DNA of 32,000 nucleotides, taken from Dickeya dadantii NCPPB 898. GTDB taxonomy: Bacteria; Pseudomonadota; Gammaproteobacteria; Enterobacterales; Enterobacteriaceae. Positions 3,672 through 31,987 of this stretch are shown piece after piece; position 1 is the stretch's first letter, and every line of letters starts with the position of its first letter. The notes beneath the pieces were generated by a model. That model was not told the DNA's origin, ran no database searches, and saw only the letters and a list, made by a program, of their open reading frames with translations. Position numbers and translations under genes: made by a program. The stretch covers positions 4,609,545 through 4,641,544 of the forward strand of contig NZ_CM001976.1 in the NCBI RefSeq assembly GCF_000406145.1, written 5' to 3'.

Positions 3672-3672
3672 C

Positions 3673-9048: not shown

Positions 9049-9138
9049 AACAACAGCATAAGACAGACACAAGGAGGGGGATTATTCATGATGATTGAGG
9101 GTGGGCGAGGGGTACGGTCCCCAACCTCATCAAACACG

Positions 9139-15154: not shown

Positions 15155-15466
15155 ATGGATTATTCGGTAATTATTCATCATGATGATGACACCTTGCATA
15201 CCCTCCTGCGCGACAAACTCAGCGCGATTGGCGTCGATAACGGCCGTATCGCCGAGATCTTTCAGGGAGCCCCCTTGTTCGGTGAAGAGGGGCGGCTGGA
15301 CTCCATCAATATCGTCACCCTGATCGCCATGCTCAGCGACCACTGCGAAGCGGCCTATAACCTGAGCGGCGATTTGTTCGACCTGACGGACGACCGCGTT
15401 TTTGATGCGTTCCAGAATCTGACCAGTCTGACGCGCTTCCTGCGCGAGCGGCTTCGCCATGGCTGA
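15155..15466 (+). CDS. free-standing acyl/peptidyl carrier protein (first gene of the Vfm-type operon)
   Basis: ATG at 15155 with AAGGGGAG RBS (the ORF-track start 15083 is rejected). The canonical phosphopantetheine site is in GRLDSINIVTLIAML. Confidence 0.75.
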   Translation: MDYSVIIHHDDDTLHTLLRDKLSAIGVDNGRIAEIFQGAPLFGEEGRLDSINIVTLIAMLSDHCEAAYNLSGDLFDLTDDRVFDAFQNLTSLTRFLRERLRHG

Positions 15467-16781
15467 CCCCACCCCTCCCGTTGCTGCTGAGGCGGGTTCG
15501 CTGTTCGCCAACGGCTATGTAGAAGAGATTCCTGTTGCCAATATTGCCGACCGCATCGGCACGCCTTTCTATGTTTACAGCGCCCGTCAGCTACGCCGCC
15601 AGCTTCAGCAGCTCCGCCAGCAACTGCCAACCGGAACCGCAATTTATTATTCTTTGAAAGCCAATCCTAATCTTTCGGTGGTTAGAGCGTTGGCGGAACA
15701 GGGGGCGGGGTGTGAGGTCTGCTCGCCAGCCGAGCTGAAAACCGCGTTGGCGGCAGGCGTCTCACCGCAGCACATCCTGTATGTCGGGCCGGGCAAATCT
15801 CTGCCGGCGCTGAAACTCGCCATTGACTGCGGCATCCAGGCAATTGTGGTGGAGTCGGTAACAGAGCTGGATAACCTCAACCGGCTGGCCGCACGGGCCA
15901 ATACCGTGCAGACGGTGGCGCTGCGCATCAATCCGGATTTCAGCAGCGCGCACGCCCGGCTGGTGATGAGCGGCAAACCTACCCAGTTCGGCATGACGCG
16001 GGATACCCTGCATACCGTGCTGGTCAGCCTGCACCGCTGGCCTTCCATTTCCCTGCGCGGTTTTCATGTTTATCTGGGTACCCGAATCCTCAATGCGCAG
16101 GCCATCGCCGACAACACCCGTAATATTCTGCAACTGGCGCTGGATCTCCGCAACACGCACCGGTTAACGCTGGATTTCGTCGATGTCGGCGGCGGTTTCG
16201 GCGTACCCTATTTTCCGAAGGAAACGCCGTTGGATCTGCCGGCGTTAGGCGCGGCCATCGCGTCGATCGTGGCGGATTTCCGCCGCCGGGCCGCCGACAC
16301 GCAAATCATCATCGAACTGGGACGTTATCTGGTGGCGGAAGCCGGCCTGTTCGTCACCCGGGTCAACACCCTGAAAACCGCCGGCGGGAAAACGTTCGCC
16401 GTCTGTGACGGCGGCGCCAATTGCCACAGTGCGGCGGCCGGCCTGAACAGCATGCTGCGCAAAAACTTTCCGTTGTTGCGGCTGGGCGACAACCAGGGGC
16501 GGCCGTTGCAGCCTTATCAGGTCAGCGGACCGCTTTGCACGCCCACCGATCTGCTGGGCGACAATGTGCTGCTACCAACGCTGGAGGTCGACGACCTGAT
16601 CGGCATCACCCACTCCGGCGCTTACGGGCTAACCGCGTCGCCGGGTTCGTTCCTCAGTTTCGGTTACCCGGTGGAAGTGATGGTGGACGGTCGACGCCTC
16701 ACGCTGATACGCCAGCCGGAAACCACGGAACAACTGCTGGCCCGGCAACAGCCGGTCGACCTCTGCGGGGATACGCCATGA
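15459..16781 (+). CDS. PLP-dependent decarboxylase, Orn/DAP/Arg decarboxylase (alanine-racemase fold) family; tentatively vfmK by position
   Basis: PLP lysine in YYSLKANPN. Other family motifs are VDVGGGFGVPY, SGPLCTPTD and HSGAYG. Its start overlaps the carrier-protein stop (ATGGCTGA). Confidence 0.85.
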   Translation: MADPTPPVAAEAGSLFANGYVEEIPVANIADRIGTPFYVYSARQLRRQLQQLRQQLPTGTAIYYSLKANPNLSVVRALAEQGAGCEVCSPAELKTALAAGVSPQHILYVGPGKSLPALKLAIDCGIQAIVVESVTELDNLNRLAARANTVQTVALRINPDFSSAHARLVMSGKPTQFGMTRDTLHTVLVSLHRWPSISLRGFHVYLGTRILNAQAIADNTRNILQLALDLRNTHRLTLDFVDVGGGFGVPYFPKETPLDLPALGAAIASIVADFRRRAADTQIIIELGRYLVAEAGLFVTRVNTLKTAGGKTFAVCDGGANCHSAAAGLNSMLRKNFPLLRLGDNQGRPLQPYQVSGPLCTPTDLLGDNVLLPTLEVDDLIGITHSGAYGLTASPGSFLSFGYPVEVMVDGRRLTLIRQPETTEQLLARQQPVDLCGDTP

Positions 16782-17689
16782 CGTTGTGTATCCAGCCGGA
16801 TGACCTGGTATGGCGCGCTTTTGCGCCCGAAAGCGAGGCCGCGTTGCTGGCCCCACATCCCAGTCAGGCTTTGATGGCGGATTACCTGCGCGCTTTTTTC
16901 CGTTCTCACGACGACCCCCAGGAACCGGACGACGCCCTGCTGACCCGCTGGCTCAACAGCGGCCGCCATACGTTTACCGCGATGATGCAGGCGCTGCTGC
17001 CCGAATTGCAGGCGCGTCATACGCTGCAGCAGCTTGATCTGGTGATGTTCGCTCATTGGACGCCCGACAGCACCCTCGGTTGCGCGGTATCCAACGCGCT
17101 GATCCATGCCTGCGACGCCCGACAGGCGTTCGGGCTGTCGGTGTCGGAGCGCGGGCTGGCGGCGCCGCTGTTTGCGCTGCACGCCATCGACGACTATCTG
17201 GCCAGCGATGAAAACCGGCGCGAGGCGTTGCTGATGATTGCCGATCAGGACGTGGCGCCTTACCCCAGCGAACGGCTGGCGCAGTTGCGTCCCCAAAAGA
17301 ACTGTTGCCTGATGCGGATAGAAAAACGCCCGCCCCAGCAGGCCAGCGGGCTGATATTTGAAGGGTATTATCGCCAACCTTACGCCGAAAGCGGCGACCC
17401 GATCGGAGCCATGCGGCAATTGCTCTCGCGCCTGCCCGCGGCGGACACGCTGACGCTGCTGAGCACCCCGTCGCTGGCGGCGGAACTACAGGGCGCGTTC
17501 CCCGAACACCAGACTGCGGCCGTGGCGGAGTCGTTACTGTGCGCCGCCCCGTTCGTATACCTGAAACACCATGCGCAGCCGGGCCGGCGTTATCTGCTGA
17601 CGGTGCCGGAATCGCGTCACCTTACCGCCTGTGTGTTGCGCTACCAGCCTTGCCACGACGGGCCTTTCACTTGCCCTCCCCGTACCTGA
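16778..17689 (+). CDS. FabH-fold (thiolase-like) protein lacking the catalytic Cys; paralog of 27192-28049
   Basis: ATGA overlap with the decarboxylase stop; the ORF-track 5' extension (16421-16777) overlaps that gene and is rejected. The strings ..MFAHWTPDSTLG..GLSVSERGLAAPLFALHAID..LLMIADQD.. align by eye to the FabH active-site region, but no Cys is present. Confidence 0.7.
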   Translation: MTLCIQPDDLVWRAFAPESEAALLAPHPSQALMADYLRAFFRSHDDPQEPDDALLTRWLNSGRHTFTAMMQALLPELQARHTLQQLDLVMFAHWTPDSTLGCAVSNALIHACDARQAFGLSVSERGLAAPLFALHAIDDYLASDENRREALLMIADQDVAPYPSERLAQLRPQKNCCLMRIEKRPPQQASGLIFEGYYRQPYAESGDPIGAMRQLLSRLPAADTLTLLSTPSLAAELQGAFPEHQTAAVAESLLCAAPFVYLKHHAQPGRRYLLTVPESRHLTACVLRYQPCHDGPFTCPPRT

Positions 17690-17701
17690 GAAGGATGCTC
17701 C

Positions 17702-19285
17702 ATGACGAACATTACCCACCTGACCGCCTGGCTTGACCGAGCAGCCAAAGAAGCCGCCAACAAAACCGCGATCATCGACACCGACCGCGAGGTCAGCTGG
17801 TTTATGCTGCGTCTGCAGGCCCGGCAACTGGCGGACTACCTGCGAGAAAACGGGGTGGAAAAAGGCGACCGGGTGATCGTCTGTATGCCGAACTCACTGA
17901 CGTTCGTGCTCTATTTCTGGGCGTTGCAGTATCTGGGGGCGATCTTTATTCCACTGAGCCCGGACACCAAAGCCAGCAAGCTGAGCTGGCTGGTGGACAA
18001 CGCCGGCTGCCGGTTACTGATTGCCAATCGCATCCTGAAAGACGAAATCGGCATCGCTCAGGCAAGCGAGCACTGGCAGCAATACAATCGTCATACCCGC
18101 GTCTGTTTCAGCAATGATGTGGCGGCCGTGCTGGCGGGAGAACCGTATCGCATCTCCGTCGAGCGCGACCGGCAGGCAACGGGCATCGACCTCGATCTGG
18201 CCTGCATTATCTACACCTCCGGCTCGACCGGCCATCCCAAAGGGGTGATGCTTAGCCGACGCAATATGATTACCGCCGCTGGCTCGGTGGCCGGTTACCT
18301 GCAACTGCGCGGCGACGACCGCATCATGTCGATGATCCCGATGAGCTTCGATTACGGCCTGTATCAGGTGATCATGTCGGCGCTGGCGCAGTGTACGCTG
18401 ATCGTAGAGCCGGATTTCCGGCGTCCGCTGCTGTCGTTGCAGCGCATGGTCACCCTGCGCGCCACCGTATTGCCGATCGTGCCGACCATGCTGCGCCTGA
18501 TCGCGCCGCTGGCGTCCCGCTATAACTTCGGCACCATCCGTACCGTGACCAACACCGCCGCCGCGCTGCATGCCGGCGATATCGATCAGTTGCGTACCAT
18601 CTTTCCGCAGGCGCGCATCTACTCGATGTACGGGCTGACCGAGTGCCACCGCTGCACTTACCTGCCGCCGGAATACCTCGCCACCCACCCGCAGAGCGTC
18701 GGCATCGCCATTCCCAACACCGAACTGTGGGTGGTGGACGACAACGGCCAGCGCCATACCCGCAACGCCACCGGCGAACTGGTGATCCGCGGCGCGACCG
18801 TCATGTGCGGCTACTGGCGCAATGAAGAGAAGAGCGCCGAAAAGCTGCGCCCCGGTCTGCTGCCGGGCGAACGGGTGCTGTACACCGGCGACATCTGCCG
18901 GTTGGATGAACAAGGATTGCTCTATTTCGTCGGCCGCCGGGACGAAATGCTGAAAAACTGCGGCGAAAAAGTGGCGCCGAAAGAGGTGGAAGCGGTGCTC
19001 AACCGCCATCCGCAGGTCGCGCAGGCGGTGGTGCTCGGCGTGCCGCACCCGATTTACGGCGACGAAATCATCGCCTGCGTGGTTACCCGCGGCGATCTCA
19101 ACGAAAAGGCGCTGTCGCGCTGGAGCAAAACCCAGATGGAGTCGCACATGGTGCCGCACCGCTTCCGGCTCATATCGCAGCTGCCGCTGAACCATAACGG
19201 CAAGATCAACCGCTCGCTGTTGCGAGAACAACTGACGGCGGGCGCAACGGCTCAGGTTTGCCCGCAGCACGGTCTAATGGAGTAA
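17702..19285 (+). CDS. AMP-dependent synthetase/ligase (acyl- or aminoacyl-adenylating enzyme); tentatively vfmM
   Basis: Core motifs are IIYTSGSTGHPKGVMLS, YGLTE, YTGDICRLDEQGLLYFVGRRDEMLKNCGEKVAPKEVE and NHNGKINR. RBS GAAGGA. Confidence 0.85.
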   Translation: MTNITHLTAWLDRAAKEAANKTAIIDTDREVSWFMLRLQARQLADYLRENGVEKGDRVIVCMPNSLTFVLYFWALQYLGAIFIPLSPDTKASKLSWLVDNAGCRLLIANRILKDEIGIAQASEHWQQYNRHTRVCFSNDVAAVLAGEPYRISVERDRQATGIDLDLACIIYTSGSTGHPKGVMLSRRNMITAAGSVAGYLQLRGDDRIMSMIPMSFDYGLYQVIMSALAQCTLIVEPDFRRPLLSLQRMVTLRATVLPIVPTMLRLIAPLASRYNFGTIRTVTNTAAALHAGDIDQLRTIFPQARIYSMYGLTECHRCTYLPPEYLATHPQSVGIAIPNTELWVVDDNGQRHTRNATGELVIRGATVMCGYWRNEEKSAEKLRPGLLPGERVLYTGDICRLDEQGLLYFVGRRDEMLKNCGEKVAPKEVEAVLNRHPQVAQAVVLGVPHPIYGDEIIACVVTRGDLNEKALSRWSKTQMESHMVPHRFRLISQLPLNHNGKINRSLLREQLTAGATAQVCPQHGLME

Positions 19286-19290
19286 CGTCG

Positions 19291-19599
19291 ATGTCATTCA
19301 ATACCGATTACGCGTCCAACGCCGGCTATCGCCCGGATTTTTACTACCAGAAGATCGCCACGGCGATCGGCATGGTGCTGGAAACCGACGACCTGTCGGA
19401 ACTGCACCCGCATACCGATCTGGAGCGGGATTTAGGGTTCAAGAGCGGCATTTTCATCGAGCTGATGATGTATCTGGAAGAGATGATCGAAGGGTTTTCC
19501 ATCAACCCGGTGACGCTGGACAGCCAGCAGATCAGCACCATCGACTCGCTCGGCCGTTTCATTCACTCACAGTTGGAGCATGACGTCCCTTGTGCATGA
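19291..19599 (+). CDS. second free-standing carrier-protein-like protein with a non-canonical Ser motif
   Basis: ATG at 19291 with a GGAG RBS 8 nt upstream. LERDLGFKSGIFIELMMYLEE resembles DLGxDSLxxxEL, but reads K-S-G where D-S-L is expected. Confidence 0.6.
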   Translation: MSFNTDYASNAGYRPDFYYQKIATAIGMVLETDDLSELHPHTDLERDLGFKSGIFIELMMYLEEMIEGFSINPVTLDSQQISTIDSLGRFIHSQLEHDVPCA

Positions 19600-21140
19600 T
19601 CGCGTCGTGGCAGTATCTGATCACCGTGTTCGCCCGGTTTGACGGCGTACACACTCCCGCCTGTCATCACACCGAAGGTGACCTGACCTATCACCAGCTT
19701 TATCAGGGGGCGCTGGCGCTGGCGGAGCGGTTGCAGGCGCAGCATGAAGCCAGCGGGCATCGCCAGCGCGCGCCGGTGCTGCTGTACGGCCATAAACATC
19801 CTGCCTGCCTGATCGCCTGGTGGGCCTGCCTGCTGACCGGCCATCCGGTAGCGCCGGTGGAAACCGACAACAGCGACGAGCGCCTGCGCTTTATCGCCGG
19901 CGGTATTCAGGCCGGGCTGCTACTCAACGCCACCGGGCAGGCGGCGCCGGATATCGGCATACCCGCGCTGACGGTTTCAACGGCATTATGTGATATGCCC
20001 GCTCCCCGGCTGGCAGACCATTGCCACCAGATGGGGCTGGCGTTCGGCCGGGACACAATCAGCGGCATAGCCTACATCCTGTTTTCCTCCGGCACCACCG
20101 GCGCGCCTAAAGGCATCCAGGTGAGCTACGCCAATCTGGCACACTTTGTACGCTGGCTTACCGAAATATTCCCCATACAAGGTACAATAACCAGTAATAA
20201 TCGATACTCCTTTGACGCATCACAGTATGAACTGTGGTTGGCCTGGTATTACTGCCAGCCACTCTCGATACTGGATTACCGCGACATCATCAATACCCGC
20301 AAGATGATCGCCCGCCATGCCGACGCCCGGCTACAAACCTGGGTCAGCACACCATCATTGCTCCGTTGCTATCTGAAAGATAGAGAATTTAGTCAGCAAA
20401 ACCTGCCGTGGCTGAGCACGTTCATCTCTTGCGGTGAAGTGTTGACGAAAGAGATCGTCAGCACCCTGTGGCGAGCCTTTCCCGGCTGCCGCATCGTTAA
20501 TACGTACGGCCCGACGGAGTGCACGGTCGCCGTCACCGCCTGCGACGTCACCCCCGCCATGCTGGATGACGACGCGCCGCTGCCGCTGGGTTATGTGCGC
20601 CCCGGCGTCGAACTGCGCATCAACGCCCCGGCAGACAGCGAACGCGGGGAAATCGTTATCGTCGGCCCGGCGGTTAGCGAAGGCTACCTGAACGCGCCGC
20701 CCGCCCAGCAGGCGCGTTTCGTCATTGAGCCAGACGGTACCCGCAGCTACCGCACCGGCGACATCGGTTCGCTACGCAACAACCTGCTTTATTTTCATGG
20801 CCGGGAAGACAGCGAACTGAAAATCCAGGGCTACCGTATCGTCCTCAGCGACATCGAAAACACGCTGCGGGAACACCCGCAGGTACAGGACGCCATCGTC
20901 ACCCCATGGCTGCTGCACGGCACGCCGCAGGGATTGCAGGCGTTTATCCTGTCCGGCCAGACGGATATTTTCCCGGCGCTGGCGGCTTATCTGCGCCGCT
21001 ACTTCCCGCTGTATATGGTGCCCAAATTCTGGTATCCAGTGGGCGATGCCGCGCTCAACCACAACAGCAAGCTGGACCGACAGCGTGTCGTCCAGCAGGC
21101 GCTCGACAAAGGCAAACGCTATGTTTTCGTCAGTTCTTAA
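19596..21140 (+). CDS. vfmO: stand-alone NRPS-type adenylation enzyme (amino-acid activating), first of two
   Basis: ATGA overlap with the upstream stop. Motifs are ILFSSGTTGAPKGIQVS (A3), NTYGPTECTV (A5), YRTGDIGSL..LYFHGREDSELKIQGYRIVLSDIE (A7/A8) and HNSKLDR (A10). The letter assignment rests on my memory of the published operon order and is not verified. Confidence 0.8.
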   Translation: MIASWQYLITVFARFDGVHTPACHHTEGDLTYHQLYQGALALAERLQAQHEASGHRQRAPVLLYGHKHPACLIAWWACLLTGHPVAPVETDNSDERLRFIAGGIQAGLLLNATGQAAPDIGIPALTVSTALCDMPAPRLADHCHQMGLAFGRDTISGIAYILFSSGTTGAPKGIQVSYANLAHFVRWLTEIFPIQGTITSNNRYSFDASQYELWLAWYYCQPLSILDYRDIINTRKMIARHADARLQTWVSTPSLLRCYLKDREFSQQNLPWLSTFISCGEVLTKEIVSTLWRAFPGCRIVNTYGPTECTVAVTACDVTPAMLDDDAPLPLGYVRPGVELRINAPADSERGEIVIVGPAVSEGYLNAPPAQQARFVIEPDGTRSYRTGDIGSLRNNLLYFHGREDSELKIQGYRIVLSDIENTLREHPQVQDAIVTPWLLHGTPQGLQAFILSGQTDIFPALAAYLRRYFPLYMVPKFWYPVGDAALNHNSKLDRQRVVQQALDKGKRYVFVSS

Positions 21141-22644
21141 TCCGATTCAGACACAAATGCGGGAAAACCCGCAGCATCTCGCCCTCGTCAACGACAGCGG
21201 CAGCTATACCTTTGCGCAGCTAGGACGTCGGGTAGAAGGCATACGCCAGGCGCTGCGCCGACACACGCCGCGCTGCGTGATGATTTACGGCCACAAGCAG
21301 TTGGACGCCGCCGCCGCCATGCTGGCCTGCGCGTTTGAAGCCATTCCGTTCACCTTTGCCGATATCGCCAACCCGGCCGCCCGTATTGAACGGATCGCCG
21401 CAATAGTTCAGATAGATCTGGTACTGCTGACATGTGAACCGCGAACCTCATTTCCCTCATTGCCGGCACCGACCATCATCACTACCAGTCTGGCAGACAG
21501 TAGCCACCTACTCCCGGCGGTTATCCCTTCACCAGAACAACTCTTTTATATCCTGACCACCTCCGGCAGCACTGGCGAACCGAAAGGGGTAAAGATCAGT
21601 TATGGGAACTTTGCTGCATTTTCTGACTGGTATATCCCCAGTCTTCAGTCGGAACGCTTCCCCGGCGGCCACGTTAATCATGCCTGTCTGTCTTTCGATA
21701 TGGGTATTATGGACCTTTTCCCCTCACTGGCTGCAGGCAAACCGGTCCTGATGCTCAATCATGCTCATAATATCCTCCCCCGCAAGAACCTGCAGTTGCT
21801 CACCGAATCCGCAGTAAAAGCAAGCAGTTGGTTTTCTACACCCAGCTTTTTGGACATTATGTGTATGGATCGCCAATTCAACGCCAAAAGTCTACCTGAA
21901 CTACGCGTAATTTTCGTTGCTGGAGAACCGGTTTCACCTTCATTGGTGCAAACATTGCAAACCCGTTTTCCCCAGGCGGAGATTCGGCACGCATATGGTC
22001 CCACCGAAACGACCTGTGTCACCCACTCCTTATGTTTACCCCCCATTCTTGACGCCAAAACAATATGCGCTTTGCCATTAGGACGACCGCAAGGCACAAA
22101 CCGCATTGTGGTCTGGGATGAATGGAAAAAACCACTTCCGGCTGGTTGCCACGGCGAAATTGTCCTTCTGGGTCCCCAGGTCGGTGCGGGTTATTTACCA
22201 CATGATCTGCCCGCCAATCAGGCCTTTGGTTATCAGGACAATGAACGTTATTACCGTACCGGCGATATCGGCTATCTGGACGAGCAGGGGCAACTGTTCA
22301 TTCAGGGGCGCAAGGATAGTCAAATTAAATGGCACGGTAATCGAATCGATCTGGCCGAAATCGAGAAAGCCGCCGGCCAATGCGATCAGGTAAAACAATC
22401 AGCGGTTTTCATAGAAAAAAACAATAACGTCGTAACTGAACTAGTGTTATGCGTCCATTTGAACATCGACACCCCTGCCCATCGCGACGGCCTGCGGCGC
22501 TCGCTGGCGCAGCGGCTGCCCGCTTACATGGTGCCGCGCGTGATCCGCTTCACCGGCCCGTTTCCGCTGACGCTGCACGGCAAAACCGACCGCCAGGCGC
22601 TGATGCGGCAAGGCGAAACCGACGTGGGAGCCGTGTCGAAGTAA
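21121..22644 (+). CDS. vfmP: stand-alone NRPS-type adenylation enzyme (amino-acid activating), second of two
   Basis: The start MFSSVLNPIQ.. at 21121 overlaps the upstream gene by 20 nt. Motifs are ILTTSGSTGEPKGVKIS, HAYGPTETTC, YRTGDIGYLDEQGQLFIQGRKDSQIKWHGNRIDLAEIE and LHGKTDR. The letter assignment is tentative, as above. Confidence 0.8.
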   Translation: MFSSVLNPIQTQMRENPQHLALVNDSGSYTFAQLGRRVEGIRQALRRHTPRCVMIYGHKQLDAAAAMLACAFEAIPFTFADIANPAARIERIAAIVQIDLVLLTCEPRTSFPSLPAPTIITTSLADSSHLLPAVIPSPEQLFYILTTSGSTGEPKGVKISYGNFAAFSDWYIPSLQSERFPGGHVNHACLSFDMGIMDLFPSLAAGKPVLMLNHAHNILPRKNLQLLTESAVKASSWFSTPSFLDIMCMDRQFNAKSLPELRVIFVAGEPVSPSLVQTLQTRFPQAEIRHAYGPTETTCVTHSLCLPPILDAKTICALPLGRPQGTNRIVVWDEWKKPLPAGCHGEIVLLGPQVGAGYLPHDLPANQAFGYQDNERYYRTGDIGYLDEQGQLFIQGRKDSQIKWHGNRIDLAEIEKAAGQCDQVKQSAVFIEKNNNVVTELVLCVHLNIDTPAHRDGLRRSLAQRLPAYMVPRVIRFTGPFPLTLHGKTDRQALMRQGETDVGAVSK

Positions 22645-22741
22645 CACTTCCCCAAAATAGCGGTACGACCTGCAAGCAGGCATAAAAAAAAACCGCTGTC
22701 GCCGGTAGTCTGGTACAAACGGTATTGACGGGGGAAAAGTC

Positions 22742-23173
22742 ATGAAATTCAGCCATCTCGGATACATCGTCAGGAATAGCGATGCCACTATTGCAGCCAT
22801 GGCGACCTTTTTCCCGCAGATCACCGTGCACCGCAAAAAAGTCAGCGCGCAGCAGATTTACGTCACCTTCATGAACACGACCCACCACGACATGCAGATT
22901 GAACTGGTGGAGCCGCTGCCGGAAAACCGGCTGCTGAGCGGCATGCTGGACAAAGAGAATAAGGATTGCCTGCCCTACCACATCTGCTTTGAAGTGGATG
23001 ATTTCAATAAAAGATATCAACAGCTGCGCGACGACGGCTGGCTGGCGCTGACGCGCCCGTTTCATGCCTACCCGCAGGGGCCGCTGGCCAGCCACCTGTA
23101 TAAACCGGAGGCAGGCATCATGGAGATCATGTCCGGCAGCACCAGTCTGATCGCACAAGGAGAAACCGCGTGA
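22742..23173 (+). CDS. VOC-superfamily protein (glyoxalase / methylmalonyl-CoA-epimerase-like)
   Basis: HLGYIV.., MQIELVEPL and YHICFEVDD are typical VOC beta-alpha-beta-beta-beta module strings. RBS GGGGGAAAAG. Confidence 0.75.
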   Translation: MKFSHLGYIVRNSDATIAAMATFFPQITVHRKKVSAQQIYVTFMNTTHHDMQIELVEPLPENRLLSGMLDKENKDCLPYHICFEVDDFNKRYQQLRDDGWLALTRPFHAYPQGPLASHLYKPEAGIMEIMSGSTSLIAQGETA

Positions 23174-24303: not shown

Positions 24304-24304
24304 C

Positions 24305-24817
24305 ATGGCATACCCGGCGTTGGCCCCCGTTAGCCGTTCGATAGTGCAGGAAACCGGCAGTCTGGCGGTGGAAACCCGCGCCACCCCGTTGACGGCACAG
24401 CAGCATGCCCTGTTGTCGCCCTGGTTTGCCCTCAATCATGCCGACCCCGACATTCCCTGGTTTTTGCATGAGCCCGTCCACAGCGACGAATTCGGTCTGC
24501 ATGCCGCCGACATCATCGCGCTCTGCCGCCATTTTTGCGCCAGCCATGCCAATAGCGTCCTGTTGTACGAGTATTGCGGCGCGCCGCTCCAGTTCCGCAC
24601 CCCGCTGCTGCAAAGCCTGCTCTATGCCGCGCCGGGTTTTCATCACAGTCTGGGGATCAAGGCGCAAGGGCGGATCCAGGCCGAACGTGATTTAGCCAGT
24701 ACACTGCTGGGCCACGATGGCGCGGTGCTTTATCTGAGCGACCCGCTGCGCCGTATCAGTCCCTGCGCCGACGCTGCGCCGGTCGTCTACCGTTACTGCC
24801 GGCTTCACCCGCGCTAG
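24305..24817 (+). CDS. 170-aa hypothetical protein; possibly a truncated relative of the Cys-less FabH-fold paralogs
   Basis: It sits in the same position (between an ACAD and a FabH-like gene) as 27192-28049. There is weak by-eye similarity (SLGIKAQGRIQAERDLASTLL..GAVLYLSD versus ALTISDRGPDAALFALSSIA..SLLLIADQ). Confidence 0.55.
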   Translation: MAYPALAPVSRSIVQETGSLAVETRATPLTAQQHALLSPWFALNHADPDIPWFLHEPVHSDEFGLHAADIIALCRHFCASHANSVLLYEYCGAPLQFRTPLLQSLLYAAPGFHHSLGIKAQGRIQAERDLASTLLGHDGAVLYLSDPLRRISPCADAAPVVYRYCRLHPR

Positions 24818-24852
24818 CCCCGTCGCACCGCTACCATGAAGCAGCACAGGCT

Positions 24853-24989
24853 CTTGATGACGCTCCAGCTATTGATGACGCTCCAGCTATTGATGACGCT
24901 CCAGCTATTGATGAAACGCTCCATACTATTTATGGAACACTCCATACTCTTTATGAAACACCCATGCTATTTATGAAACACCCCATACC
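24853..24989. repeat. seven tandem direct repeats of 18-21 bp in the intergenic gap inside the operon
   Basis: (C/A)TTGATGACGCTCCAGCT occurs three times (24853-24906). These are followed by ATTGATGAAACGCTCCATACT, ATTTATGGAACACTCCATACT, CTTTATGAAACACCCATGCT and ATTTATGAAACACCCCATACC. Confidence 0.9.
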
Positions 24990-25047
24990 ATGACGCCGGA
25001 CACGCCGTTCGCCCTTTTTCATCCCGTTAACCGTCAGGAGTGCGCTT

Positions 25048-25971
25048 GTGCTAGGACACCTTGAGGCGATAGAAGTCGCGTTTCCGCCTGAAGTACAATC
25101 ACTGGACGAGGTCGCGCAGGAAGTCGGCATGACCCGGCTTGATGTGCGCATGTTTGACCGTTTTTACGGGCTACGCCGTTTTCACGGCGGCCCCGGCACG
25201 CTGGACGAACTGCTGACGCCGGTTGTCGACCAGATGCGGCACAACCGGCCGCAGGCTTTCGCCGCCATCAGCCATGTCGCGCACTGCCATACCGTGCCTT
25301 GCGTGCGAGTGTTCGAAACCGCGAGCCAGACACCCTCCTGGTTGAATCGCTTTTCACCCCGGACCGAATTCGCCAGCCTGACCATGGGGCACTGCGCCAC
25401 CCCGCTCACCGCGGCGGAATGGTTGCTAAAACAGCTTTCGCCCGACGACTTCGGCCTGATACTGATCGGCGAGAAAGCCTTTCACCCCAGGGTCAGACTG
25501 ATCAAAGACACCACTCTGATGGGCGAGGCCGCCTGCGCGGTACTGTTGAGCCGTCAGGGCGACGGCCCGGCGATCCTCAGCCGTTACACCGGTCAGGATG
25601 GGCGCTTTAGTATCCAGAAAGGCGCCGACGAGCACGAAATCTCCGACTTTGGGCAGCATTATATTGATTTTACCCGCCAACACCTGCAGGCAGCGCTGGA
25701 CAAAGCCGGCGTAACCATTGATTGTATTGCCTGGATCGCCCCTCATAACGTCAATATCTCGTCGTGGCACCGTCTGGCGCAGTTGATGAATTTTCCACGG
25801 GAGAAAATCTTTCTGGAAAACGTCCCGCGCTATGGTCACTGCTTTGGCGCCGACCCGTTTATCAACCTGCGCCAGTTGCAGCAACAGCAGCGGCTGCGCA
25901 AAGGCGATACCGTGCTGCTGGTCAGCGTGGGGCTGGGCGCGACCTACTCATCGTTACTGATCAAGATTTAA
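25048..25971 (+). CDS. FabH-like (KAS III family) condensing enzyme, copy 1
   Basis: GTG start 7 nt after an AGGAG RBS. The active-site Cys is in SLTMGHCATPLTAAEWL and the His in IAPHNVN. The third motif reads RYGHCFGADP where FabH has GNTSAAS. Confidence 0.8.
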   Translation: MLGHLEAIEVAFPPEVQSLDEVAQEVGMTRLDVRMFDRFYGLRRFHGGPGTLDELLTPVVDQMRHNRPQAFAAISHVAHCHTVPCVRVFETASQTPSWLNRFSPRTEFASLTMGHCATPLTAAEWLLKQLSPDDFGLILIGEKAFHPRVRLIKDTTLMGEAACAVLLSRQGDGPAILSRYTGQDGRFSIQKGADEHEISDFGQHYIDFTRQHLQAALDKAGVTIDCIAWIAPHNVNISSWHRLAQLMNFPREKIFLENVPRYGHCFGADPFINLRQLQQQQRLRKGDTVLLVSVGLGATYSSLLIKI

Positions 25972-26071
25972 CCAAAACGCAATATCGGGCAATACACCAC
26001 AACTATTCCCGATAAGGTACATAATTATCGTGCGAATGGTATTTTTTGCGACTCGACTAACAGGACAGATC

Positions 26072-27208
26072 ATGAAGGCTCTTACGTTCAGTAATGTATT
26101 AAAAGAATTGGATGCACTGGGCGAAAAATTACGGCAGGCGGCCAGTCAGGTAGAATCCGATCGTAGCCGGGCGTTATCCTGTCTTGAGGATGAGTTGCTT
26201 TATACCATCGCCTACATTGGCATTCCGCCCGAATTCATTCCGTTTCGGGGGTGGGACTATCAGGCCTGCCACTATAGCGATCACATCGATATGCTGGAGT
26301 ACCTCAGCCGCTTCGACGCCAGCGGTCTGATGATGTTGCCCGGCGCTTCGCTGTCGGCGCGAGCAGTCACGATGCTGGGCACGCCGGAGCAGCAGGCCTT
26401 CTTCTTCTCCCGCTTTAACCAGCCGCCTTGCTGGGCGTTTTTTGCCGTCACCGAACCTGAAGTCGGCTCCGATACGCAATCGATCGCTTCTTCACTGACG
26501 CCGACCGATAACGGCTATGTGCTGCACGCCCGCAAGAAATTCATCGGCGGCGCGCAACTGGCGTCCGTCGGGCTGGTCTTCGCCCGCGAAGGCAACCTCC
26601 AGCGGCTGGTGATGGTGGAGCCCGAACAGGCCGCTTCTCACATGACGATCACGCCGCTTGAACAGTTCGGACTACAGGGTTCTAACCTGACGGAAATCGA
26701 GATCAACGGGCTGCCGGTCACGCCGGATCGCATTCTGGGCTATCACCGCAAAGGGCTGAACCAGGGGCTGACCGCGCTGGGACAGGTGTTTGAACGCCAC
26801 CGTCCGATGGTCAGCGCCATGGCGCTCGGCACCGCCTACGGGCTGCTGCGCGTGCTGGACGACACCGGGCTGAACGCCGAACAACAGCGCTGGCGCGCCC
26901 AGCAGTGGCGTACTTACCATCTGCTGCGGCAGCAACTGTCGGAAACCGCCGCGCGCTACCAGTCCGGCCAGCCGCAATACCACATCACCAGCCAGTTGAA
27001 ACGGCGCTGTACCCTGTTCGTGGAAACGGTGGCGCACCGGATGCCGCATCTGCTGGGCGAGCAAACGTGGCTGGAAGACGCGCCGTTGCGCCGTCGCTGT
27101 CGCGATGCGCTGGCGTTCGAATACATGGAAGGCACCGCCAATATCCATCTGATGAACAGTTTCCGTTGTTACACTGCCAAGGGAGGCGTCTGTGCCCACG
27201 TATCTTGA
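26072..27208 (+). CDS. acyl-CoA dehydrogenase family flavoprotein, copy 2
   Basis: Start MKALTFSNV.. at 26072 (the ORF-track start 26030 is less likely). Motifs are FAVTEPEVGSDT and FEYMEGTANIH. It is a paralog of 23170-24303. Confidence 0.8.
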   Translation: MKALTFSNVLKELDALGEKLRQAASQVESDRSRALSCLEDELLYTIAYIGIPPEFIPFRGWDYQACHYSDHIDMLEYLSRFDASGLMMLPGASLSARAVTMLGTPEQQAFFFSRFNQPPCWAFFAVTEPEVGSDTQSIASSLTPTDNGYVLHARKKFIGGAQLASVGLVFAREGNLQRLVMVEPEQAASHMTITPLEQFGLQGSNLTEIEINGLPVTPDRILGYHRKGLNQGLTALGQVFERHRPMVSAMALGTAYGLLRVLDDTGLNAEQQRWRAQQWRTYHLLRQQLSETAARYQSGQPQYHITSQLKRRCTLFVETVAHRMPHLLGEQTWLEDAPLRRRCRDALAFEYMEGTANIHLMNSFRCYTAKGGVCAHVS

Positions 27209-28049
27209 CCCACGGTCGATACTGCACCGCCGCTTTGCCTCGCCCGCCAGCATGCCGCGGCAGGCGATCAGCCCGGCGCAGGAGTATTACTGGCACAGCT
27301 ACGCCACCCGGTTCTTCGCCAGCAACGGTCTTGACTGGCATGATAGGATGGCTAACCTGCAATCCAGCAGCCGGACCAGCGACCTGACATCGTTCATCAA
27401 CATGATCGGCCAGTTGCTGCCCGTTTATCGGGCCAGAAACGATCTGTCGCATATCGACAGCGTGCTGATGGCGCACTGGACGCCGGACTTACATCTTGGC
27501 AGTTCGGTGATCAACTATGTCATCGAATCGCTCAGGTTGCCGGCCTGTCTGGCGTTGACCATCAGTGATCGCGGGCCGGACGCGGCGTTGTTCGCGCTCT
27601 CCAGCATCGCCAATTGCCAGTTGGAAGATGACCATGACTCGCTGTTGCTGATCGCCGACCAGAGCAACCTGCCGTATCACTCCACCCTGCTTGAATCGCT
27701 CGCCCCGGAAAACAACGCCTGTCTGTTTTCCGTCAGTTGCCACGAGCGGCCGCTGCGCTATCAGGGGTTCTGTCGCCATCCTCAACCCGCGGCCGACACC
27801 CTGGCGCAAACCGTGGCCCAGTTATGCCAGCGCTTTGCCCTGCGGCAAGACCGCTTATGCGTGGTAGCGGAGCCGTTACTGCTGGCGGCGCTGCCGCCGA
27901 CGCTGACCGGTATCGCCACCAACCCGCATCTGGTATGCGCCGCGCCGTTTGTGGCGCTGGCGGAAAATTACCAGCCCGGCCGTGACTACCTGCTGCTGGT
28001 TCATTATCAGGACACGCTCAGCGCAGTCGCATTACAAGGGATGGAATAA
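27192..28049 (+). CDS. FabH-fold protein lacking the catalytic Cys (PqsB-like partner candidate)
   Basis: GTG start 5 nt after a GGGAGG RBS, overlapping the ACAD end by 17 nt. It is a paralog of 16778-17689, with shared strings HWTPD, ..SDRGPDAALFALSSI.., LLLIADQ and VCAAPFVAL. Confidence 0.7.
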   Translation: MPTYLDPRSILHRRFASPASMPRQAISPAQEYYWHSYATRFFASNGLDWHDRMANLQSSSRTSDLTSFINMIGQLLPVYRARNDLSHIDSVLMAHWTPDLHLGSSVINYVIESLRLPACLALTISDRGPDAALFALSSIANCQLEDDHDSLLLIADQSNLPYHSTLLESLAPENNACLFSVSCHERPLRYQGFCRHPQPAADTLAQTVAQLCQRFALRQDRLCVVAEPLLLAALPPTLTGIATNPHLVCAAPFVALAENYQPGRDYLLLVHYQDTLSAVALQGME

Positions 28050-28085
28050 TGGGGGACAGAAACCAGTGCAGGGGCTGAAATAACG

Positions 28086-29024
28086 GTGCGTCTGACCCGC
28101 TTTGTGACCTGGGTGCCGAAGCAACGGCTGAGCGCCGGCGATGTTATTTGCGCCGCAGGCGCCAGCGCATCGGAAGCGCGGGTCTTCTCGCAACTGTTCG
28201 GCTTTCGGCAGGTGGCGGCGCTGGATAGCGATGTGCCGCTGGCTTCGGTGTTCCACCGGCTGCTCAGCGAGTTGCAGCGCCAGTCGCCGCACCCCGAGCA
28301 CCCGGCCGATGTGCTGATCTATGCTCACGGCATGCCGGTGCAGGCGTCGGATCAGCACCCTTGGCTGGTCCAGCTTGGCCGTGAACATCCGTTTATTCGC
28401 GAGCACGCCCCCTGCTACGAACTCGACCAGCAAAACTGCGCCACGCTGTTTTGGGCGCTGGCGCTGGCTCAACGACTGCTGTCGCAGCAACGCGCGAAGC
28501 GGGTGGCGATCATTGCCGGCGATACGTTATCTGCATTTGCGATTCAGGAGCGATATTTTCCCGGTTGTACTATGGTTGGCGATGCCTTCGCAGCACTGTT
28601 ACTGGAAAATCAGCCATCCGGCCTCCAAATAGGACCTGTCTATACCGAACAGCGACCAGAGTTTCATGAAGGCATTCATGGTAGCGAGCACGCCAAAAAA
28701 GCATTTTATCAAGCTCATGATGAGTTGATTTCCGATGCGTTACAAAGCGTAAAGCCAGGCCCCCCGACACATCTCCATCTCTTACCGCACAACGTCAATC
28801 GGTTAAGCTGGCTCAACTATTCCCGCCGTCATCAACATCCGCTGGAAAACATTGCGCTCGGCCTGATGCCGGATATCGGACACTGCTATACCGTCGATCC
28901 GCTGCTGTTGCTACCAGCCGCACTGCCCGCAATTCAGTCCGGCAAGCCCCACGTCATGCTGTCCGTCGGTCTGGGCGCCTGGATCGGCAGTTGCCGAATC
29001 CAGTATGCTGACGCGCCGTTCTAA
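28086..29024 (+). CDS. FabH-like (KAS III family) condensing enzyme, copy 2
   Basis: The N-terminus MRLTRFVTWVPKQRLSAGDV is FabH-like. The Cys is in LDQQNCATLFWALALA, the His in LLPHNVN, and the third motif is DIGHCYTVDP. Confidence 0.8.
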   Translation: MRLTRFVTWVPKQRLSAGDVICAAGASASEARVFSQLFGFRQVAALDSDVPLASVFHRLLSELQRQSPHPEHPADVLIYAHGMPVQASDQHPWLVQLGREHPFIREHAPCYELDQQNCATLFWALALAQRLLSQQRAKRVAIIAGDTLSAFAIQERYFPGCTMVGDAFAALLLENQPSGLQIGPVYTEQRPEFHEGIHGSEHAKKAFYQAHDELISDALQSVKPGPPTHLHLLPHNVNRLSWLNYSRRHQHPLENIALGLMPDIGHCYTVDPLLLLPAALPAIQSGKPHVMLSVGLGAWIGSCRIQYADAPF

Positions 29025-29306: not shown

Positions 29307-29822
29307 ATGAAAGCGTTGCTTTGTTCCGCGCTGGTGCTGCTGCCATTGACGGTGGCTTGTTCGCCGGCGAATCAGCAAAACGTGGATGTGCCCTCCTTTA
29401 CGACATTGGATGTTAGCCGTGGCCTGAGCGTCACTTTGGTTTGCGGTAATGGATACCGCGTGGAGGCCAGCGCCAGACAGGATGTTCTGGATAAGCTGGT
29501 CGTCCGCCCTCAGGGACAGAGTCTGATCATCGAAAACCATTCCAGCGATGACAATATCCTGCGTGATCACAGCGCAGCGATTACGGTCATTATCAGCGCA
29601 CCGATTACTACGATTAAGGCACAGTCAGGTGTCAGGATGACCGTTCCCGCCTGTGCGGTTTCGCCCGACACATTCACGGTCGACGGCAGCATGGGCGCGG
29701 AGATCAACGTCGCGGGCAATACACGTCAGCTCGACCTGTCGCTGGCGATGGGGTCATCTTTCAATACGCGTGAACAGGCTTTTTCGGCGCAGGAGGCCGT
29801 GGTGAATATCGCCAGGGCGTAG
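29307..29822 (+). pseudogene. DUF2807-like (adhesin-head GIN-domain-like) lipoprotein, apparently frameshifted near its 3' end
   Basis: Strong RBS GGAGAGAGG. Lipoprotein-type signal MKALLCSALVLLPLTVAC. It has beta-helix-like repeats. After the TAG at 29820-29822 a further 43 codons (DARLCHVRQLSGTITTGARVRVAPDTLVHTSNGVASL..) continue in another frame to the TGA at 29951-29953. Confidence 0.5.
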
Positions 29823-29940
29823 ACGCGCGGTTATGCCATGTGCGGCAGTTGAGTGGAACCATCACCACCGGCGCCAGAGTCCGGGTGGCACCGGATACGC
29901 TGGTTCATACCAGCAACGGCGTAGCCAGCCTGATAGACCA

Positions 29941-30711
29941 TCACGGTTGCTGAAGCGATGCGCGGTTTTCCGGCGCGTCGTCACGCAGTATCAGCAAACG
30001 CCATGCATCCGGCTCGGCCGATTTAGCAGGCAAAAGGCAGTAGCTGAGCGCGACGGACGGCTCCCCCGCAATCCACGCTTCATCCAGCCGACAATCGCTA
30101 ATCTGCCCGACATCCGTTACCCGAATAGCCCCCTGGCCGTCGGCCAGGCAGCTGAACGACGCCAGCGATTTGCGCAACCCTAACCCCAGCGCTTTGATGT
30201 AGGCTTCTTTGCGGCTCCACAAACAGGTGAACGCCGGCAGGAATCGCACGTCATCAAACGCATCCAGCCAGCGGATTTCATCAGGATGAAAGAAACGTCT
30301 GGCCACTGACCGCTTACGGTCCACATGACCCTGACAGCTTTCCACATCCACACCCACCGGACTGTGGCGCGCAAACGCAAAAGCAAAGGCGCTATGAGTG
30401 TGGGATAGATTGAACTGAATTGTCGGATGCTGTGGCAAAAACGGTTTGCCATGCGGGTTACGCTCAAAGCGTAGTGCGGCGGCCTCTTGCTGACACAGCG
30501 GCGCCAGCAGGATGCGCAGCATGCCTTCCGCCAACTGGCGGGAAGCCAACACCGCATCCGGCAGCACGCCGCAGGCCTGACGAGCCTGCGCGACGATTGT
30601 CGGGCACGCCAGTTGCGCACGCGGTACTACAACACAGTGGGGATACGGCCATGCTCTCGCCGCCAGGTCATCCCAGCGGCAGGAAGATATTGACGACACA
30701 GCCTTCTGCAT
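29941..30711 (-). CDS. vfmJ: Sfp-type 4'-phosphopantetheinyl transferase
   Basis: Motifs are GKPFL...FNLSHT, VGVDVE and WSRKEAYIKALG. It overlaps the 3' end of the kinase gene by 44 nt. The symbol is inferred from the published vfmFGHIJ operon order. Confidence 0.8.
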   Translation of the reverse strand: MQKAVSSISSCRWDDLAARAWPYPHCVVVPRAQLACPTIVAQARQACGVLPDAVLASRQLAEGMLRILLAPLCQQEAAALRFERNPHGKPFLPQHPTIQFNLSHTHSAFAFAFARHSPVGVDVESCQGHVDRKRSVARRFFHPDEIRWLDAFDDVRFLPAFTCLWSRKEAYIKALGLGLRKSLASFSCLADGQGAIRVTDVGQISDCRLDEAWIAGEPSVALSYCLLPAKSAEPDAWRLLILRDDAPENRASLQQP

Positions 30712-31987
30712 CCTTACGGTTCTCCAGCGTCAGGTGCCCGTCATGGCCTTCGACAATCTGCCGGCACAGAATCAGCCCAATGCCGCTGCCATGCGTCTTG
30801 GTGGTATAAAACGGCACGAACAGGTTTTCGATATTCGCCACCCCTTTGCCCTGATCGATAATCTCGATATGCAATTGCCGGGCAATCACTTTCCAGCGCA
30901 ACACGATTTCACCCTGCCCGGGTGCCATCGCTTCATCGGCGTTTTTCAGCAGGTTGATGAACATCTGCTGCATTTGATTGGCATCGACCATCGCCTGCTG
31001 CGGCGCGTCCCCGGAAAGCACCAGTTTACGCTGTGGGAACAGCATCGCCATTTGCGTCATCAGCCCGGCGATATCGCAGGGCTGTTTGTTGGCCGGCGGC
31101 AGGCGGTTCAACTGACGATAACTGCCGACAAAGGTGATCAGTTCGCGGGCGCGATTGTTGATGATCTCCATGCCGTTGACCAGATCCGGCGCCGCCTGAT
31201 GCTGACTATCCTTACGGAACACCTGCAACAGCGTCTGGCTGATGGAGGCAATCGGCGTCAATGAGTTGTTGATCTCATGGCTGATCACCCGCAGCAGGTT
31301 CTGCCAGGTTTTCTGCTCCTCGTTACGCAACAGTTTGCTCACATCGCTGATGAATAACAGGTGGTTTTGCCGACCGTCTTCGATAAAGGAATCGTGACGA
31401 ATCTGGAACATCCCCCGTGTGCCGGGGAAACGCCAGTCGACCGGCTCGGCATCTGACGGTTGCTGCAACAACCCTTCCAGCCCGAACTCCGCCGCCGGTT
31501 GTCCCACCAGCAGCGAGAGCGGTTTGTTGACCAGCACCGCCGCCGCGTCGTTACACCAGATGATGCGCCGCTCCGCGTCCAGCGCGAACACGCTGATATT
31601 GATATTGGAGATTACCTTGTGCAGCACATAGTAGGTTTCTTTTTGCTGCTGACGGCTACGGGCCATCGTGCCGGAAAGCTGGTTAATCTGGCGGATCAAG
31701 TTATCAAACGCGCCTTTATCCTTGGTAACGCCGCGCAGGCTGAAGTTTTCCTGCTCCAGCGCTTCCAGCAGGTTAGACACAACGTGAATCTTGCCGTTCA
31801 GTCGCTCGGAGAACGTAAAGCTGCTGTAGACCAGACACAGGAAGATGATGAATACCGTCAGTATCTTCAGGTACACCGACTGGTCGGGAAACAGCCATAG
31901 CAGGAAATACCCCAACAAGCCGGCAATCGCTGCGACATTGAATGACAACAGGTGAGGAGGCTCAAAGGAGGAGTCGAGTTTACTCAT
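30668..31987 (-). CDS. vfmI: membrane sensor histidine kinase (two TM segments, PAS-like region, HisKA + HATPase_c)
   Basis: TM segments are LLSFNVAAIAGLLGYFLLWLF and ILTVFIIFLCLVYSSF. The H-box is LLRVISHEINNSLTPI, the N-box FINLLKNADEAM, G1 DQGKGV and G2 GSGIGL. The symbol is inferred from the cluster context. Confidence 0.8.
   Translation of the reverse strand: MSKLDSSFEPPHLLSFNVAAIAGLLGYFLLWLFPDQSVYLKILTVFIIFLCLVYSSFTFSERLNGKIHVVSNLLEALEQENFSLRGVTKDKGAFDNLIRQINQLSGTMARSRQQQKETYYVLHKVISNINISVFALDAERRIIWCNDAAAVLVNKPLSLLVGQPAAEFGLEGLLQQPSDAEPVDWRFPGTRGMFQIRHDSFIEDGRQNHLLFISDVSKLLRNEEQKTWQNLLRVISHEINNSLTPIASISQTLLQVFRKDSQHQAAPDLVNGMEIINNRARELITFVGSYRQLNRLPPANKQPCDIAGLMTQMAMLFPQRKLVLSGDAPQQAMVDANQMQQMFINLLKNADEAMAPGQGEIVLRWKVIARQLHIEIIDQGKGVANIENLFVPFYTTKTHGSGIGLILCRQIVEGHDGHLTLENRKDAEGCVVNIFLPLG

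Follow-up and report, generated by a model that had tools for sequence, protein, structure and literature searches.

The vfmY–vfmI part of the Vfm quorum-sensing locus in Dickeya dadantii NCPPB 898 and a tentative route to its signal without condensation domains

A stretch of 32 000 nucleotides from Dickeya dadantii NCPPB 898 (contig NZ_CM001976.1, forward strand, positions 4 609 545 to 4 641 544; called the window below and numbered from its first letter) was analysed gene by gene, and the cluster between 15155 and 31987 was identified, almost with certainty on sequence and gene order, as the vfmY-vfmK...W operon with vfmX, vfmJ and vfmI of the published D. dadantii Vfm quorum-sensing locus. 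The genes of this operon would outline a thiotemplate route of free-standing proteins without a condensation domain; the outline is tentative and is held at a little under even confidence, and identity and mechanism taken together are narrowly favoured as the best explanation of the cluster as a whole. The locus is already known (since 2013, with 26 named genes) and is not a new find, so the novelty of the system is low, and the suggestion of an earlier note on this DNA that an incompletely described system lies here was set aside as a claim of discovery. What that note said of the signal still holds: a paper of July 2026 calls it 'a still-uncharacterized signaling molecule' (PMC13395407), and no structure for it was found in the bioRxiv and PMC literature. 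According to published genetics the locus directs an extracellular signal, which is sensed by VfmI and VfmH, the response being amplified by VfmE (PMC9306890, PMC7912708).

On the plus strand, 14 co-directional open reading frames (ORFs) were read from 15155 to 29024, and the six stop/start overlaps described among them were found to be real (15459/15466, 16778/16781, 19596/19599, 21121/21140, 23170/23173 and 27192/27208); the first start codon (vfmY, ATG 15155) is preceded by the ribosome-binding site AAGGGGA. The order in the window is vfmY, K, L, M, N, O, P, Q, R, S, T, U, V, W and X on the plus strand, then J and I on the minus strand, the names having been assigned from position in the published 'vfmY-vfmK-W' order (PMC7912708). 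Ten predicted proteins matched D. dadantii records residue for residue, the kinase was identical to ADN00604.1 of strain 3937 (named VfmI by NCBI), and BLASTP against the 26 Vfm proteins placed the window proteins at 98–100% identity to a 3937-like contig (L001). The same gene order was found in L001–L003 (D. dadantii contigs) and in L007–L008, and a look-up of VfmI returned three D. dadantii contigs with this order that also cover the part of the locus beyond the window; the window includes the vfmY–vfmI part of the locus, with vfmH, G, F, E, D, C, B, Z and A found past position 32000. The region is an annotated, conserved operon and not a chance pattern. In the literature the 26-gene locus lies beside expI/expR and is divided into the transcription units vfmY-vfmK...W, vfmX, vfmFGHIJ, vfmE and vfmAZBCD (PMC9306890; PMC7912708; PMC12206141; PMC8860905; bioRxiv 10.1101/2023.09.17.558112). 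Compared with the vfm locus of 3937 (Nasser et al. 2013; Hugouvieux-Cotte-Pattat et al. 2022, PMC9306890), the window has the same genes in the same order, the same expI/expR neighbours, an identical VfmI, and P and W alleles that are 99% identical to those of the 3937-like contig, and it differs by a one-base frameshift in vfmX; the match to the Dickeya Vfm locus that had been drawn from gene content was borne out in this way. A scan for promoters and terminators gave nothing above shuffled background and no clear operon end.

Strain variation was followed in the same contigs. L002 and L003, from other D. dadantii, differ from L001 in VfmP (about 70% identity), VfmW (82%) and VfmG (61%), the rest of the locus being 97–100% identical, and this divergence reproduces the published pattern of recombination and polymorphism (PMC9306890). 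Ten-residue specificity codes of VfmO and VfmP were also derived from an alignment with DltA and were dropped, only the first three positions (DAY, DMM) matching the published codes; since the codes could not be read, the allele group was taken from identity to the 3937-like contig, and on that identity the window alleles are of the 3937 type (group I). The vfmX gene (29307–29822, +; Pfam DUF2807) is truncated, with 171 codons here versus 213–215 elsewhere: one T that two other D. dadantii sequences have is missing near 29815 (29815–29822), and the frame is shifted. A vfmX frameshift has been reported in D. dadantii DSM 18020T, where signal is still made (PMC9306890), and that of the window is probably the same one. 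Between vfmS and vfmT, Tandem Repeats Finder gave an array of about seven tandem units with periods of 18 and 21 nt (24850–24988), in which GCTATTGATGACGCTCCA grades into CTATTTATGAAACACTCCATA; three D. dadantii sequences carry the array, whereas in D. oryzae and D. undicola it is missing and the spacer is much shorter, and no remnant of the extra hydrolase gene that stands between S and T in other genera was found in the Dickeya spacer.

Window genes were searched against Pfam, and four ORFs had no match at E 0.01 (15155–15466, 16778–17689, 24305–24817 and 27192–28049). The three adenylating enzymes, the pyridoxal phosphate (PLP) decarboxylase, the vicinal oxygen chelate (VOC) protein, the two acyl-CoA dehydrogenase (ACAD) family enzymes and the two FabH-like enzymes that had been listed from the letters all matched above threshold, and the convergent Sfp-type 4'-phosphopantetheinyl transferase (PPTase) and the sensor histidine kinase placed downstream of them were recovered as vfmJ (29941–30711, −; ACPS, E 2.7e-18, and AASDHPPT_N) and vfmI (30668–31987, −; HATPase_c, HisKA and PAS). 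The VOC/glyoxalase-fold protein is encoded by vfmQ (22742–23173, +; Glyoxalase_4, E 3.9e-13; weak match to the methylmalonyl-CoA epimerase model TIGR03081). Paralogue pairs recur through the cluster, with 32% identity between O and P, 28% between R and U, 25% between T and W and 33% between L and V. Published vfm descriptions (PMC9306890 among them) class VfmM, VfmO and VfmP as stand-alone adenylation enzymes and VfmW as an oxoacyl-acyl carrier protein (ACP) synthase.

The genes vfmY, vfmK and vfmM bear on how one building block could be made. Of the two free-standing carriers proposed in the earlier note, VfmN (19291–19599, +; ATG 19291 after GGAG) was confirmed by Pfam above threshold (PP-binding, E 5.9e-5), whereas VfmY (15155–15466, +) matched PP-binding only below threshold (E 0.049), its best PDB match being an ACP (E 0.15), and is a putative divergent carrier at the profile level: hhalign aligned the profile of its orthologues with that of the VfmZ carriers (probability 76%, E 2.2e-5), the phosphopantetheine Ser being in register, and this Ser lies in an L(D/N)S motif (LDS/LNS) kept by the orthologues. 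VfmN aligned with the VfmZ family at a probability of 98%; the residue before its phosphopantetheine Ser is Lys here (LGFKSG), whereas Glu or Asp (LGFESG, LGFDSG, LGIDSG) stands there in the listed orthologues, which come from D. oryzae, D. undicola and other genera. A dedicated carrier may be encoded beside the decarboxylase, vfmY overlapping vfmK by 8 nt. VfmK (15459–16781, +) is a fold-type III PLP decarboxylase of the ornithine/diaminopimelate (DAP) type (Pfam Orn_Arg_deC_N, E 6.6e-46), and its best solved relative is BtrK (7ru7/2j66), the L-glutamyl-[BtrI ACP] decarboxylase, with 272 bits and E 8e-80, the best DAP decarboxylase reaching 196 bits, well under the BtrK score; the best NCBIfam model (TIGR03099) stayed below its cut-off. 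A role of VfmK as LysA in lysine synthesis was considered and rejected: the lysA score of 293 lies under the cut-off of 297.9, the BtrK score is much higher than that of DAP decarboxylases, and the gene lies inside the operon. VfmM (17702–19285, +; Pfam AMP-binding, E 2e-78) matched the adenylation domain of LgrA (274 bits) and VinN (3wvn, 230 bits) in the PDB, its best NCBIfam model (TIGR03098) also being below cut-off. In vicenistatin biosynthesis the stand-alone ACP VinL receives 3-methylaspartate from VinN and is the carrier on which the PLP enzyme VinO removes the carboxylate; a second adenylating enzyme, VinM, aminoacylates the carrier-bound amine, which makes an amide bond without a condensation domain (PMC11284099). 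In having a free-standing carrier, a loader that uses ATP and a PLP decarboxylase of fold type III, vfm resembles the butirosin proteins BtrI and BtrK and the vicenistatin proteins VinL, VinN, VinO and VinM; the Btr and Vin products feed an aminoglycoside or a polyketide synthase (PKS), however, and vfm has neither a PKS nor a sugar pathway.

Both further adenylating enzymes, VfmO (19596–21140, +; Pfam AMP-binding) and VfmP (21121–22644, +; AMP-binding and AMP-binding_C), were closest to DltA (259 bits with DltA in the PDB and more than 300 bits with NCBIfam DltA models; VfmO reached 333 bits with a DltA subfamily, below its cut-off). VfmO reads FISCGEVL where DltA reads LFCGEVL, and VfmP has Ala at that Cys position; we take the Cys kept by VfmO to be at the position of DltA Cys269, which selects the D-alanine enantiomer. 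The likeness to the DltA/DltC system lies in stand-alone adenylation enzymes beside small carriers, and the differences are that VfmO and VfmP score under the DltA family cut-offs and that no dltB or dltD homologues were seen. Their published specificity codes also differ from that of DltA, and vfmO/vfmP polymorphism tracks signal specificity, allele groups predicting the specificity of biosensors (PMC9306890). The two flavoenzymes of the ACAD family are VfmR (23170–24303, +; Pfam Acyl-CoA_dh_M and Acyl-CoA_dh_1) and VfmU (26072–27208, +; Pfam ACAD middle and C-terminal domains; 378 amino acids in related contigs). They read FEYTEGT and FEYMEGT, respectively, which presumably is the ACAD motif with the catalytic Glu.

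VfmT (25048–25971, +; Pfam ACP_syn_III_C, E 2.4e-20) and VfmW (28086–29024, +; ACP_syn_III) resemble 3-ketoacyl-ACP synthase III (KAS III) and carry the Cys; this Cys, the His of a PHN motif and a G-H-C motif are invariant across Dickeya, Pseudomonas, Rahnella and Vibrio (in VfmW Cys118, His235 and 265–267). FabH has G-N-T (Asn) where VfmT and VfmW have G-H-C (His). By sequence, the closest PDB relatives of VfmT are FabH, CerJ and DpsC, and the closest solved relatives of VfmW are CorB (4yuc), which joins two carrier-bound chains, and 4v2p (labelled 'KETOSYNTHASE'); similarity of VfmW and VfmT to CorB/4v2p, CerJ, DpsC and ChlB3 is low (25–51 bits) and the third catalytic residue differs. For VfmV (27192–28049, +), 42 relatives were found by search, and an AlphaFold2 model on 29 aligned sequences (pLDDT 86.8, pTM 0.88) matched FabH, type III PKS, AbyA1, BioZ and OleA in a Foldseek search of the PDB (probability 1.0, E about 1e-11, template-modelling (TM) score 0.58–0.65). 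Aligned by profile with the T/W family, VfmV has an invariant SDRG motif at the position of the VfmW nucleophile Cys and no counterpart of the PHN His. A FabH fold without the catalytic Cys and His is supported for VfmV by this model and alignment, in line with the FabH-fold proteins without Cys that the earlier note had listed. VfmL (16778–17689, +; no Pfam or NCBIfam match; the 'hypothetical' Dda3937_03215) is a VfmV paralogue (33% identity, E 9e-32) and is a predicted Cys-less partner protein of the same fold.

Homologues of VfmV and VfmW were adjacent in every locus holding both. PqsBC of Pseudomonas aeruginosa is a FabH-like heterodimer with its active site in PqsC (PMC4807248), and the likeness is that two dissimilar FabH-fold proteins are encoded side by side, one alone having Cys and His, in systems that both make a cell–cell signal. 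No significant sequence similarity between PqsBC and VfmV/VfmW was shown, PqsB was not among the 50 Foldseek matches listed, and PqsC has a Cys–His dyad whereas VfmT and VfmW have Cys and His plus the His of GHC. By analogy with PqsB/PqsC, VfmV and VfmW may form a heterodimer. The small protein VfmS (24305–24817, +; no Pfam match) gave an AlphaFold2 model of moderate confidence (pLDDT 70.9), the homologue search having returned four close relatives; nearly all of the 50 Foldseek matches listed were KAS III, HMG-CoA synthase, CerJ or related condensing enzymes (E 4e-4 and weaker, query-normalized TM score 0.3–0.47; ChlB3 and CerJ among them), and profile comparison of VfmS with VfmV (E 0.31) and with VfmT/VfmW (E 0.16) was not significant. 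On this model VfmS may be half of a thiolase fold, and by appearance 6 of the 26 vfm genes encode proteins of the thiolase fold.

Condensation (C), thioesterase (TE) and ketosynthase–acyltransferase (KS-AT) domains were searched with Pfam, and neither the genes of the window nor the ten longest antisense ORFs contained any; the antisense ORFs had no Pfam match of any kind and were rejected as hidden genes. The window ends inside the locus, so absence from the window covers half of it. With the precomputed Pfam matches of the remainder included, no condensation domain was found in the whole vfm locus, as far as Pfam sees. The absence of all three domain types claimed in the earlier note therefore stood for the window, and for the condensation domain it stood for the whole locus, but beyond the window VfmD is a 362-residue alpha/beta-hydrolase (Abhydrolase_1/6) with a weak match to Thioesterase PF00975 (E 0.0064). 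With an alpha/beta-hydrolase just past 32000 a plausible release enzyme exists, and the conclusion that release must be unconventional for want of a thioesterase went too far. The same part of the locus encodes a third FabH-like protein (VfmA), a third carrier (VfmZ; PP-binding, E 3.6e-7), a MATE exporter (VfmC), an AraC-type regulator (VfmE), a MacB-type ABC transporter (VfmF/VfmG), a sigma-54 response regulator (VfmH) and VfmB (L001:927–1538), in which only a subthreshold match to the ACAD C-terminal helical domain was obtained (21.6 bits, E 2.6e-4; KLMGGHG). VfmB is conserved in alpha-proteobacterial operons and may be a non-catalytic partner.

Relatives in other genera were collected by scanning with a VfmV/VfmL alignment, one genome per species, which gave 38 loci, and BLASTP against the 26 Vfm proteins was used to assign their ORFs. 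Members of the V/L family are rare: among 1.84 billion representative proteins, 143 matched at E 0.001 and 26 at 1e-30. In Pseudomonas spp. and Rahnella (L004, L005, L009–L016 and L018) the order is M N O P Q R S (hydrolase) T U V W (P450, luciferase-like) X, followed by convergent J I H G and, in loci whose sequence extends far enough, a VfmF homologue at the edge; the genes are at 31–77% identity to Dickeya, most of them at 31–65%, and VfmI/H/G/F/J homologues, the whole sensing circuit, are kept. Vibrio, Lonsdalea and Xenorhabdus vietnamensis have the biosynthetic core, and no VfmI or VfmH homologue was found within 10 kb flanks. In Rhodobacterales (Phaeobacter, Tritonibacter, Sulfitobacter, Yoonia and others) and Rhizobiales (Mesorhizobium, Rhizobium) a single operon (L021–L024, L026, L029–L030, L032–L035, L037–L041 and L043) reads A Z B C D T (Y) K (U) V W M N O P and includes P450s and other oxygenases; we know of no product for it. 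The VfmK homologue there can lie in one ORF of 831–864 codons (L021:7522–10014, Mesorhizobium; L030:7320–9911, Phaeobacter; L033:7467–10001, Tritonibacter), and a Pfam run on L033 found the domains of a decarboxylase and of a VfmU-type ACAD in the same ORF; such a fusion links both activities to a single substrate. The vfm cluster is described in reviews as unique to Dickeya (PMC8860905), and a 2023 preprint reports it in Prodigiosinella (bioRxiv 10.1101/2023.09.17.558112); reports of vfm-like clusters in the other genera were not found in the literature, the coverage of which was incomplete. At about even chances, the Vfm core is a member of a rare and scattered family of thiotemplate pathways without condensation domains in gamma- and alpha-proteobacteria, with Vfm-type quorum sensing outside Pectobacteriaceae; such a family could combine KAS III-like enzymes and their inactive partners of the FabH fold with DltA-like loaders and with a decarboxylase that depends on a carrier and is coupled to an ACAD.

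The pathway that we would draw from these parts begins with VfmJ, which would convert the carriers VfmY, VfmN and VfmZ (the last outside the window) to their holo forms. VfmM would then load an acidic amino acid onto VfmY and VfmK would remove its carboxylate on the carrier, leaving an omega-amino acyl thioester of the beta-alanine or GABA (gamma-aminobutyric acid) type, on which the ACAD VfmU would act next; this step is suggested by the BtrK score of VfmK, the carrier profile of VfmY, the VfmM–VinN match, the VinN/VinL/VinO precedent and the decarboxylase–ACAD fusion. VfmO and VfmP would load two strain-variable amino acids onto VfmN and VfmZ or, alternatively, would add amino acids directly to the carrier-bound amine in the manner of VinM, as their DltA kinship, the VinM precedent and the polymorphism that tracks specificity would allow. 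In place of condensation domains the Cys-bearing VfmT and VfmW (and VfmA) would join the carrier-bound pieces, VfmW probably having the Cys-less VfmV as its partner, as in the PqsC–PqsB pair, and VfmL may serve another of them likewise; pointing to this are the lack of a condensation domain in the locus, the invariant Cys, His and GHC of VfmT and VfmW, the position of vfmV beside vfmW, PqsBC, and the kinship with CorB and 4v2p. Finally, VfmD would release the product, as its alpha/beta-hydrolase domains suggest, VfmC and VfmFG would export it, and VfmI/VfmH would sense it. Such a route would fit a small polar product, and the Vfm signal has been reported to be highly polar and present in trace amounts.

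Several points weigh against this outline. The carrier match of VfmY is below threshold in Pfam, and the loader of the butirosin system, BtrJ, is an ATP-grasp enzyme and not of the AMP-binding type, so that the VfmY–VfmK–VfmM trio mixes two precedents. VfmR and VfmU score best against generic acyl-CoA dehydrogenases, and their dependence on a carrier is for this reason assumed. By profile, VfmV is only weakly linked to the T/W family (hhalign probability 20%, E 0.0011), so that the kinship is drawn mainly from the predicted fold, and vfmL is not adjacent to a FabH-like gene and is missing from the alpha-proteobacterial clusters. The KAS III-like enzymes could, moreover, use malonyl or fatty acyl units, which would fit the original published idea of a signal made from amino acid and fatty acid building blocks (PMC7912708).

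Other explanations were weighed against the same evidence. In the published reading (PMC9306890) the cluster is a type II non-ribosomal peptide synthetase (NRPS), in which VfmM, VfmO and VfmP each pick an alpha-amino acid and another condensation catalyst makes the peptide bonds of a short, perhaps acylated peptide. The parts of such a system are present (three stand-alone adenylating enzymes, the carrier VfmN with VfmY at the profile level, and the PPTase VfmJ), and the prediction of biosensor specificity by the VfmO/VfmP allele groups agrees with it, yet we consider it unlikely, if worth serious attention: Pfam showed no condensation domain or other known peptide-bond catalyst in the window genes, the long antisense ORFs or the rest of the locus; six thiolase-fold genes seem unneeded for a simple peptide; and VfmK is nearer to a carrier-dependent decarboxylase than to LysA, which makes a plain alpha-amino acid improbable for at least one of the units. 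A cassette for a pyrrole or dehydro-amino acid, of the pyoluteorin, prodigiosin or clorobiocin type, was also considered, in which the DltA-like enzymes load proline or a similar amino acid, VfmR and VfmU oxidize it, and the FabH-like proteins and the hydrolase only transfer acyl groups. Acyl-transferring precedents are CloN2 and CloN7 of clorobiocin, and the vfm gene content, as we see it, parallels the CloN1–N7 set. VfmR matched the PigA (E 4e-18) and RedW (E 1e-15) families of NCBIfam and a solved L-prolyl-peptidyl carrier protein (PCP) dehydrogenase (64 bits), VfmT matched the acyltransferase-type KAS III proteins CerJ and DpsC, and the fold matches of VfmS include CerJ and ChlB3; but generic ACADs outscore the prolyl-PCP enzymes (AcrC family 93 bits, ACX4 80 bits), VfmO and VfmP are nearer to DltA than to proline ligases (259 versus 116 bits), and the decarboxylase and VfmM are left unexplained, which makes this cassette distinctly improbable.

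It is still less probable, to the point of being very unlikely, that the core makes a general secondary metabolite (a toxin, an antibiotic or a siderophore-like compound) that is merely sensed by Dickeya, quorum sensing being a lineage-specific addition. The cores of Vibrio, Lonsdalea, Xenorhabdus and alpha-proteobacteria, which had no VfmI/VfmH homologues in the 10 kb flanks and carry extra P450, luciferase-like and halogenase-like tailoring genes, agree with such a product. Against it, Pseudomonas and Rahnella have the kinase, the sigma-54 regulator, the ABC transporter and the PPTase arranged as in Dickeya, the signal acts in trace amounts, and there are the Dickeya genetics (3937, D. solani and EC1), in which cell-free supernatants complement and autoinduction runs via VfmI, VfmH and VfmE (PMC9306890, PMC7912708).

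Upstream of the operon, expI (acyl-homoserine lactone synthase; 13035–13691, +; Pfam Autoind_synth, E 2e-90) and expR (LuxR-type receptor; 13657–14544, −; Autoind_bind, E 7.8e-39, and GerE) were identified as neighbours that are not part of vfm, the 3' end of expR overlapping expI convergently; the location beside expI/expR that had been given for the cluster was right and agrees with the published adjacency (PMC12206141, PMC8860905). The true start codon of expI probably lies a few codons after the called one, at the ATG that opens MLEIFDV. Further upstream, the region 441–12485 resembles an accessory island and holds an IS3-type transposase (441–1277), an Abi_2 protein (1598–2548), two genes with an XRE-type helix-turn-helix, a 766-residue protein with a weak pesticin/lysozyme-like C-terminus (4182–6482), a PAAR protein (8035–8451, −) and an 895-residue protein without a Pfam match (9798–12485, −); GC content drops to 32–34% at 6000–8000.

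In soft-rot Dickeya, Vfm is the main virulence switch, with a signal that chemists have been unable to identify since 2013. The remaining interest of the locus lies in this unsolved signal together with the BtrK link, the decarboxylase–ACAD fusion, the pairing of VfmV with VfmW and the spread beyond Dickeya; no mention of the BtrK/VinN kinship, of VfmY as a divergent carrier, of the paralogue pairs, of the decarboxylase–ACAD fusion, of the V–W pairing or of the wider spread of the cluster was found in the Vfm literature consulted. These leads would narrow the chemical search to a decarboxylated, carrier-built amino acid unit, with FabH-type enzymes taking the place of condensation domains and the fusion in relatives as a further pointer. 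Related clusters in Pseudomonas, Rahnella, Phaeobacter and others would offer alternative producers, from which the compound class might be easier to isolate, and if Vfm-type circuits work outside Dickeya, genus-specific claims and the quenching strategies built on them would need revision.

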